18,311 nucleotides of DNA from Chlamydiia bacterium (GTDB lineage Bacteria; Chlamydiota; Chlamydiia; Chlamydiales; JAAKFQ01), in contig JBDNIV010000004.1 of assembly GCA_041688145.1 (NCBI GenBank), forward strand, positions 1 through 18,311, in the 5' to 3' direction. Each line of letters opens with the position of its first letter. The first letter of the stretch is position 1. Both the position numbers and the translations under genes were made by a program. Shown piece by piece: positions 2,998 through 3,408 of the stretch. The notes under the pieces were generated by a model that saw only the letters and a list, made by a program, of their open reading frames with translations, was not told where the DNA came from and did no database searches.

Positions 2998-3408
2998 ATG
3001 GAAGAGCATTCTGAAAACGAAAAAAGTGAAAAATCTCGCTACACCTTGCGCCTACACCAAACGCTTGTAAAACGAATTGACCAACATCTATTTTGCCTAC
3101 ATTTTATTGAAAATGCCTACCTTAGTAAGCGGAGCTGGATTCTATCTGCACTCAAAGAGAAGCTCGACTTAGAAGAGCACCGCGAGCTTCCTAAATTACC
3201 TAAACCAAGCGCTATTCTCATAGAATTAGATACACAAACACTTTCTCGCCTCATGCACCAGATGTCGATTATCCGTAAGATAAAAGGCAGTTATTCCATG
3301 AAGAGCTGGATGATTGATGCTATTGAAGAAAAACTTGAGAAAGAGGCCTACAAAGCTGCTCTAATTGCAGAAAAAATCCGACTTCCTAGCAAAGAAGAGC
3401 CCTCTTAA
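2998..3408 (+). CDS. Hypothetical protein with two tandem ribbon-helix-helix-like units; putative DNA-binding regulator
   Basis: ATG 2998 has GAGGA 7 nt upstream and is preferred over TTG 2965. There is an internal duplication: RYTLRLHQTLVKRIDQHL...SKRSWILSALKEKL and AILIELDTQTLSRLMHQM...SMKSWMIDAIEEKL. Each unit reads as beta strand, helix, then an S-x-x-x-W..A..EKL helix. Confidence 0.65.
   Translation: MEEHSENEKSEKSRYTLRLHQTLVKRIDQHLFCLHFIENAYLSKRSWILSALKEKLDLEEHRELPKLPKPSAILIELDTQTLSRLMHQMSIIRKIKGSYSMKSWMIDAIEEKLEKEAYKAALIAEKIRLPSKEEPS

Follow-up and report, generated by a model that had tools for sequence, protein, structure and literature searches.

A 136-aa tandem ribbon-helix-helix (RHH)-like protein is encoded between the type III secretion system (T3SS) genes sctN and sctO of this chlamydial genome, and belongs to an unnamed chlamydial family whose members mostly head F-like tra operons. 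The explanation we favour, and consider somewhat probable, is that it is a tra-operon regulator orphaned and stranded by the loss of its element, then duplicated and retained to regulate locally as a dimer, the T3SS operon being its insertion site. The family membership, the usual position of the family, the broken sctN/sctO adjacency, a second inserted copy and retention in a related species are established; we infer that the protein binds DNA, and likewise the direction in which it would regulate. A reading as a general chlamydial T3SS regulator does not stand. The observation made in a first-pass annotation of the sequence is thereby confirmed, and its interpretation partly supported.

The gene and the surrounding T3SS cluster

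The window, meaning the whole stretch of 18,311 nt that was analysed, comes from a reduced genome of 1.3 Mb (92% complete). The tandem RHH-like gene is the ORF at 2998–3408 on the forward strand, with the translation quoted in the first-pass annotation. A GAGG ribosome-binding-like motif precedes the ATG at 2998, and alternative in-frame starts are found at 2965 (TTG) and 2971 (GTG). The upstream neighbour is sctN (cdsN; 1426–2736, forward strand), encoding the T3SS ATPase (TIGR02546, 622.5 bits against a cut-off of 604.75; PF18269), and the downstream neighbour is sctO (cdsO; 3657–4160, forward strand; PF16789, E 1.1e-32). The gene order of the cluster is cdsG, a SctI-like gene, sctN, the tandem RHH-like gene, sctO, a putative sctP (assigned from position alone), sctQ, a Ser/Thr kinase gene and sctC. 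The GC3 of the inserted gene (0.39) matches its neighbours, and the window has no match in Rfam.

Several other features of the window may be recorded. The SctC secretin (8307–13076) is 1589 aa long and has six matches to Secretin_N, separated by long repeats; the Chlamydiaceae SctC, at roughly 900 aa, is much shorter. The gene at 744–1412, 5' of sctN, matches SctI, the inner rod protein of the T3SS, in its C-terminal part (PF17001, E 1e-4), its score against TIGR02497 being 20.7 bits, below the cut-off of 23.45. About 230 aa at the C-terminus of the Ser/Thr kinase (6647–8212) are without a Pfam match. The ORFs at 14565–15359 and 17199–17942 have hydrophobic segments and no meaningful Pfam match, and are candidates for lineage-specific membrane or secreted proteins. 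A perfect 18-bp palindrome occupies an intergenic position at 17981–17998.

A lineage-specific insertion between sctN and sctO

That sctN and sctO are normally adjacent, as the first-pass annotation stated for T3SS clusters, is borne out in the order. Their distance was taken from HMM coordinates in 61 genomes, sctO being found in 58; 54 relatives carry both genes on the same contig and strand, after exclusion of two with the genes on different contigs and one with an inversion. The median gap in these relatives is 35 nt, 53 of the 54 lie at or below 150 nt and the largest reaches 322 nt, against 932 nt here. In a genome of the same family (G001) the gap is 127 nt and holds no ORF. The insertion is therefore lineage-specific, and an sctN-X-sctO synteny is not general across Chlamydiales; the order, whose conservation across Chlamydiota the first-pass annotation had put forward for checking, is kept only in a closely related species. 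Three spacers elsewhere show features of their own: that of G001 contains a long inverted repeat of at least 12 perfect pairs (L045:3424–3529), that of G008 is 322 nt long (L046), and in G035 (L047) sctN and sctO are inverted, with a 241-aa ORF in between.

The arrangement recurs in metagenomes, identically (100%) on contig L039, which possibly has the same source as the window, fragmentarily in run X2 at 99+%, and in run X6 on one 40-kb contig of a related species, which spans sctN, the tandem RHH gene and sctO at about 88% identity. This recurrence argues that the locus is not an assembly error. The 40-kb contig probably encodes protein P0003; P0002 and P0003 are 87% and 81% identical to the window protein. 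The reading frame is intact in three variants, and the gene is kept in at least one related species. In the X6 relative, the segment from sctN to the RHH gene differs at 170 of 1,380 nt and the sctO segment at 54 of 766 nt. Locus DNA occurs in lake and freshwater metagenome runs; runs X7–X9 hold a small share of it, which is no evidence of habitat. The listed runs carrying locus DNA include no RNA dataset.

Repeat structure and predicted fold

The two units proposed in the first-pass annotation are genuine. They are about 43 aa each (residues 14–56, at 3037–3165, and 72–113, at 3211–3336) with a period of 58. Self-alignment gives a score of 60, reached by none of 2,000 shuffles (maximum 54), and profile-profile comparison of unit 1 with unit 2 a probability of 99.25%. 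In the AlphaFold monomer (pLDDT 89.8, pTM 0.49) the predicted helices are 21–38 and 44–61 in unit 1 and 79–96 and 101–128 in unit 2, following the strands RYTLRL and AILIEL, respectively. Each unit superposes on RHH chains with middling scores (Z 4.7–5.1, rmsd 1.3–2.8 Å over 44–54 residues), and for both units the majority of top structural matches are such chains, including TacA2, the TraM N-domain, CopASO, PutA52 and NikR, as well as several antitoxins. The proposed tandem RHH-like fold is thereby upheld. Foldseek returned nothing from the PDB at E 0.001, and the structural matches listed included no whole-length match to TraY or VirC2, the monomer model being an open one.

Pfam, NCBIfam and PHROGs yield no convincing family, and Pfam and NCBIfam give no match to the window protein (P0001). 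Among 150 family members, two match RHH_1 and three RHH_8 (E 0.004–0.007), further weak HMM matches are to a CopG protein and NikR (E 0.1–0.2), and all ten of the nearest named Atlas clusters belong to the RHH clan.

The intramolecular RHH pseudo-dimer that had been expected is not what the models contain. A paired strand is absent from the AlphaFold monomers of both the window protein and a tra-linked family member (pTM 0.58). A homodimer model, on the other hand, scores 0.51 against 0.00 for the best of three controls, a mark that 20 of 30 solved homodimers attain, and 1 of 23 single chains; the runs share at least 84% of their contacts, with pLDDT of at least 75. The predicted inter-chain contacts join residue 73 to 16', 17' and 19', together with helix packing, so that unit 1 pairs with unit 2 of the other chain. 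The prediction is thus a domain-swapped homodimer with a two-fold axis and two unit1:unit2 heads, in which the antiparallel strand pairing typical of RHH proteins would arise within the intertwined dimer; such a dimer would suit an inverted repeat. A TraY-like monomer is a further possibility, since the TraY unit period (56) is close to 58 and predictors may miss a knotted monomer.

The window protein keeps the core residues W47, A51, K55, S100, K102 and A108, and its first strand retains the family-like R14, T16 and R18. In strand 2, residue 74 is polar and residue 76 mostly K or R across the family, whereas the window protein has A/L/E at the corresponding positions and its clade L74 with E or Q at 76. 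A hydrophobic residue 74 combined with E, D or Q at 76 occurs in none of the 146 other members, which argues that the strand asymmetry is derived. The earlier view that unlike strands form an asymmetric half-site, and that a dimer could read a palindrome, thus holds as far as the modelled unit1:unit2 heads and a possible inverted-repeat target are concerned; the heads, though, would form in trans, and the acidic and hydrophobic second strand is peculiar to a small clade. Judged from these residues, the derived strand could mean either a new DNA specificity or weaker binding.

A family mainly at the head of F-like tra operons

A 9-row profile recovers 303 clusters at 50% identity. With a 150-row profile, matches were found in 35 of 400 genomes of the order, the present one included (one genome unscored). 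Of 44 rows in other genomes, 5 partial matches and 6 that did not come up to E 1.6e-10 were set aside, leaving 33 full-length homologues in 28 genomes, 20–45% identical. One of the 33 has stops, and broken members occur in other genomes.

Eighteen of the 33 lie within 3 kb of traE, all of them divergent from it. Three more belong with these: that of G244 faces the gene in the pilin position and traL on a short contig, and those of G213 and G126 face TraC remnants. In total, 21 of 33 stand divergent to the start of an F-like tra operon, or of what remains of one; the other 12 are near transposases, RHS genes or unrelated genes. The name traA is positional only: neither HMM nor BLAST searches matched the gene in the pilin position to F TraA. 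TraE (42 of 46 rows used, 4 weak ones dropped) is present in 19 of the 28 genomes with a family gene and in 21 of the 371 without, counts to which no probability is attached because kin are not independent. No family member was detected in 21 of the 40 TraE-bearing genomes. Plasmid pPNK, which is not independent of the 33-homologue tally, carries one member (PNK_RS12950, probability 99.8%) divergent from the pilin-position gene, traL and traE, and a second (PNK_RS12355).

The flanks of all 33 homologues were inspected, and none adjoins sctN or sctO; an apparent sctN beside the homologue at L032 is an alternate F1 beta subunit. The proposal of a T3SS-embedded regulator loses ground here, as homologues sit mainly beside tra genes and have no sctN/sctO link, an outcome that the first-pass annotation had itself named as counting against a T3SS role. 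One homologue, an unrelated orphan (G245, L071:5923–6345), precedes a scc4-like gene of the CesT family and cdsD by about 2 kb; its close orthologues in G227 and G067 lie elsewhere, and same-genus orthologues are near transposases.

Other arrangements were also seen. In G266 two members stand in tandem beside a probable transposase (L073:3245–4088). Some tra operons without the tandem protein have other small upstream ORFs (L053:3051–3263, L054:2876–3265, L055:1748–2047, L050:3231–3539); some of these resemble single RHH units, one with E 2e-4 on the family profile, and they are possible alternative regulators. Protein and 7-row alignment queries of named GTDB contigs, and searches of viral contigs, gave no confirmed relative. 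A description of the family was not found in the open literature (subscription papers being outside the scope), though it may figure, as an orthologue group without a name, in the supplements of PMC4652624 and PMC7846284.

A second copy in the same genome

A paralogue, 47% identical, lies between lptB and ndk (G000:C16:4292–4705; L007/L038), genes that are 10 nt apart in a same-family genome. Both insertions of the gene thus fell in conserved housekeeping surroundings, of which only one is T3SS. A separate X6 contig touches this paralogue. In a 45-row tree the window protein, the paralogue, P0002, P0003 and P0006 form one clade (100/97) with P0013 and P0014 as its sister, deeper branches being mostly unresolved. 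No shared motif was found upstream of the two copies, and searches with the pPNK tra proteins detected no tra genes, TraE included, in this genome. A GC-rich terminator-like hairpin follows the lptB/ndk paralogue.

Spacers and candidate operators

The spacers flanking the gene are 261 nt (2737–2997, 31.8% GC) and 248 nt (35.1% GC) long, agreeing with the roughly 250 bp given in the first-pass annotation. Their AT-richness is ordinary (the genome median is 34.8% GC over 181 spacers of 150–400 nt), and was rejected as a sign of foreign DNA. Neither contains an ORF longer than 49 aa, and hence none of toxin size. The upstream spacer, which aligns with indels to the related species, presumably holds the gene's own promoter; it has no notable inverted repeat and no TTGAC[ACT] box. 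A scan of 2600–3750 found two sigma-70-like promoters against 2.8 expected, no excess. No terminator was found after sctN. Directly 3' of the stop codon of the tandem RHH gene, a 9-bp AT-rich hairpin with a T-rich run (3412–3432, forward strand) is a possible weak terminator; as a terminator candidate it was rejected on folding, which is no better than in shuffles (z −0.99).

A perfect 16-bp palindrome, AGCTTTGTACAAAGCT, at 3541–3556, is a candidate operator 100 nt upstream of sctO. It is matched in 8 of 2,000 shuffles of the downstream spacer, while 12 such palindromes in 134 kb of intergenic DNA give a chance of about 4–5% for the two spacers together. It is single-copy in the genome, with no intergenic match within 2 mismatches, and overlaps a weak promoter-like TTGTAC-N18-TAAGCT that was read by eye and not called by the scan. 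In the alignment with a related species, known by its extents alone, the stretch 3379–3535 is replaced and similarity resumes at 3535, just before the palindrome; in a third strain it starts from 3526. A palindrome before sctO, together with none in the upstream spacer, points downstream rather than to autoregulation.

Of 17 regions at the heads of tra operons, two of them with estimated starts, 10 have a TTGAC[ACT] box that faces the pilin-position gene (shuffle mean 1.5, maximum 5). Inverted repeats there sum to 120 against a mean of 101.6, above all 200 shuffles, and the strongest overlap or flank the promoter, their sequence differing between elements. On these patterns they would look like element-specific operators; k-mer enrichment gave no operator common to the whole family.

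Comparison with known tandem RHH proteins

The protein appears to work most like EntFR (pENTE01 ENT638_RS21925), a double-RHH putative tra regulator of group D F-like plasmids (PMC5102898). Both have two predicted RHH motifs per chain, and EntFR is divergent from traA-traL-traE by about 200 nt, the chlamydial distance being typically 220–290 nt. Most members of the chlamydial family share this position; the window copy, orphaned in a T3SS operon and without tra neighbours, does not. No profile similarity accompanies the analogy (hhalign probability 5% over 26 columns, against the single EntFR sequence). EntFR has 213 aa with widely spaced units, and comes from enterobacterial MOBF plasmids with traM rather than from chlamydial elements.

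F TraY (NF010303) is likewise a tandem RHH protein of about 131 aa, with a period of 56 against 58, and adjoins traA. It is a monomer with both units folded in one chain (bioRxiv 10.1101/2024.12.19.629322), whereas the units pair between chains in models of the window protein; it is co-oriented with traA, whereas all 18 traE-proximal family members are divergent; and hhalign gives a probability of 1%, NCBIfam TraY models matching F TraY and not the chlamydial family. VirC2 of Agrobacterium also has two RHH motifs per chain, but in a trefoil-knotted single chain (PMC10598012) and in a T-DNA context that is absent here. Strand-helix-helix units of the Arc/CopG/MetJ superfamily (PF01402, PF03869; NikR, PutA52, CopASO, TacA) superpose on those of the window protein. 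It differs from them in having a helix A and loop of greater length, the signature W-x3-A-x3-K-L, its units in tandem and no match to a curated profile.

The F-like tra units of environmental chlamydiae (Pam100G, pPNK; PMC548262, PMC5010888, PMC7846284) are headed by this family. The available text of PMC548262 and PMC5010888 names no traY, traJ, traM or oriT and describes no regulator, and the pPNK member PNK_RS12950 is unannotated. Plasmid-to-chromosome gene flow is described as frequent in chlamydiae (PMC7846284), and horizontally acquired factors as often being local regulators (PMC4652624), a paper whose main text contains no RHH, CopG or ribbon term. In the available text of PMC10880633 the only RHH protein mentioned is a toxin-linked one of Arc type, in Waddlia.

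Origin and function of the inserted gene

In the explanation that we favour, tra-linked members of the family would control tra transcription by binding inverted repeats, specific to each element, around the divergent promoter region that they share with the operon, repression being the commoner mode among RHH proteins. The element would have been lost, and the orphan regulator duplicated and altered in its second strand. The stranded copy likely landed between sctN and sctO, where its co-orientation, and the room for a promoter that it brings or leaves, would have made it tolerable. The predicted swapped dimer, in which a chain contributes its unit 1 and its unit 2 to different DNA-binding heads, likely acts on a nearby promoter, its own first of all; the T3SS operon would be an insertion site, not an ancient regulatory partnership. 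Some observations weigh against this explanation: the lone palindrome before sctO, the G245 homologue near the scc4-like gene and cdsD (its close orthologues being elsewhere), the 12 of 33 homologues without a tra operon head, the 21 of 40 TraE-bearing genomes with no member detected, and the lack of an upstream motif common to the two copies. Moreover, an insertion that is kept, with an intact frame in at least one related species, fits any useful function, T3SS control included.

Such control could take the form of co-option, in which the tra-derived dimer binds 3541–3556 and, within the genus, gates sctO, sctP, sctQ, the kinase gene and sctC apart from sctN. The scarcity of the palindrome among shuffles, the resumption of the alignments at 3535 and 3526, the fit of a predicted two-fold dimer and a second strand suggestive of new specificity all speak for it. 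Yet such palindromes occur 12 times in 134 kb of intergenic DNA, the site is single-copy with no regulon at other loci, its promoter-like overlap was not called by the scan, the species alignment is known from extents and not from the palindrome letters, the lptB/ndk paralogue has no such site, and none of the 33 other homologues adjoins sctN or sctO. We regard co-option as unlikely, though the likeliest of the rivals, and give similarly limited credence to the fuller version, a domesticated injectisome switch with a re-tuned strand 2, with the wider family providing the missing regulator of F-like conjugation in chlamydiae.

Less credible again is that the host keeps its two chromosomal copies as silencers, which repress the regulators of invading F-like elements or poison them through mixed dimers. 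Two copies are indeed retained where no tra genes were detected, the swapped architecture would permit mixed dimers, and the loss of DNA-reading residues from unit 2 would fit a dominant-negative; cross-talk is doubtful, however, because operators look element-specific and homologues are only 20–45% identical. A slowly decaying passenger of little or no function is about as improbable. The frame is intact in three variants, a genome reduced to 1.3 Mb has kept a second copy of 47% identity, the core residues are retained and GC3 is like that of the neighbours; on the other side stand the loss of residues conserved in the family (K/R at 76, K at 101), the greater divergence of the sctN-to-gene segment than of the sctO segment, and the broken members in other genomes. 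A TraY/TraM-like, oriT-binding relaxosome accessory, or an orphan RHH antitoxin, is very improbable. The TraM N-domain and several antitoxins do appear among the structural matches (Z about 5), and TraY is a tandem RHH protein adjoining traA; nevertheless, the pPNK queries detected no tra or relaxase genes here, profile similarity to F TraY is absent, neither spacer has a toxin-sized ORF, and the neighbours are SctN and SctO.

As an orphaned tra-operon regulator, the window copy offers a clean natural example of a core operon, in a reduced genome, in which a regulator from a mobile element has become fixed, and if it controls the downstream T3SS genes, transcription-factor domestication would have been caught early. 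Its predicted swapped dimer with two mixed heads suggests a possible third tandem-RHH design, beside the TraY and VirC2 monomers. The family as a whole, about 300 clusters at 50% identity and unannotated in Pfam and NCBIfam, is put forward as a candidate regulator of F-like conjugation in chlamydiae, a role to which no protein has so far been assigned, and candidate operator regions for it are offered here.
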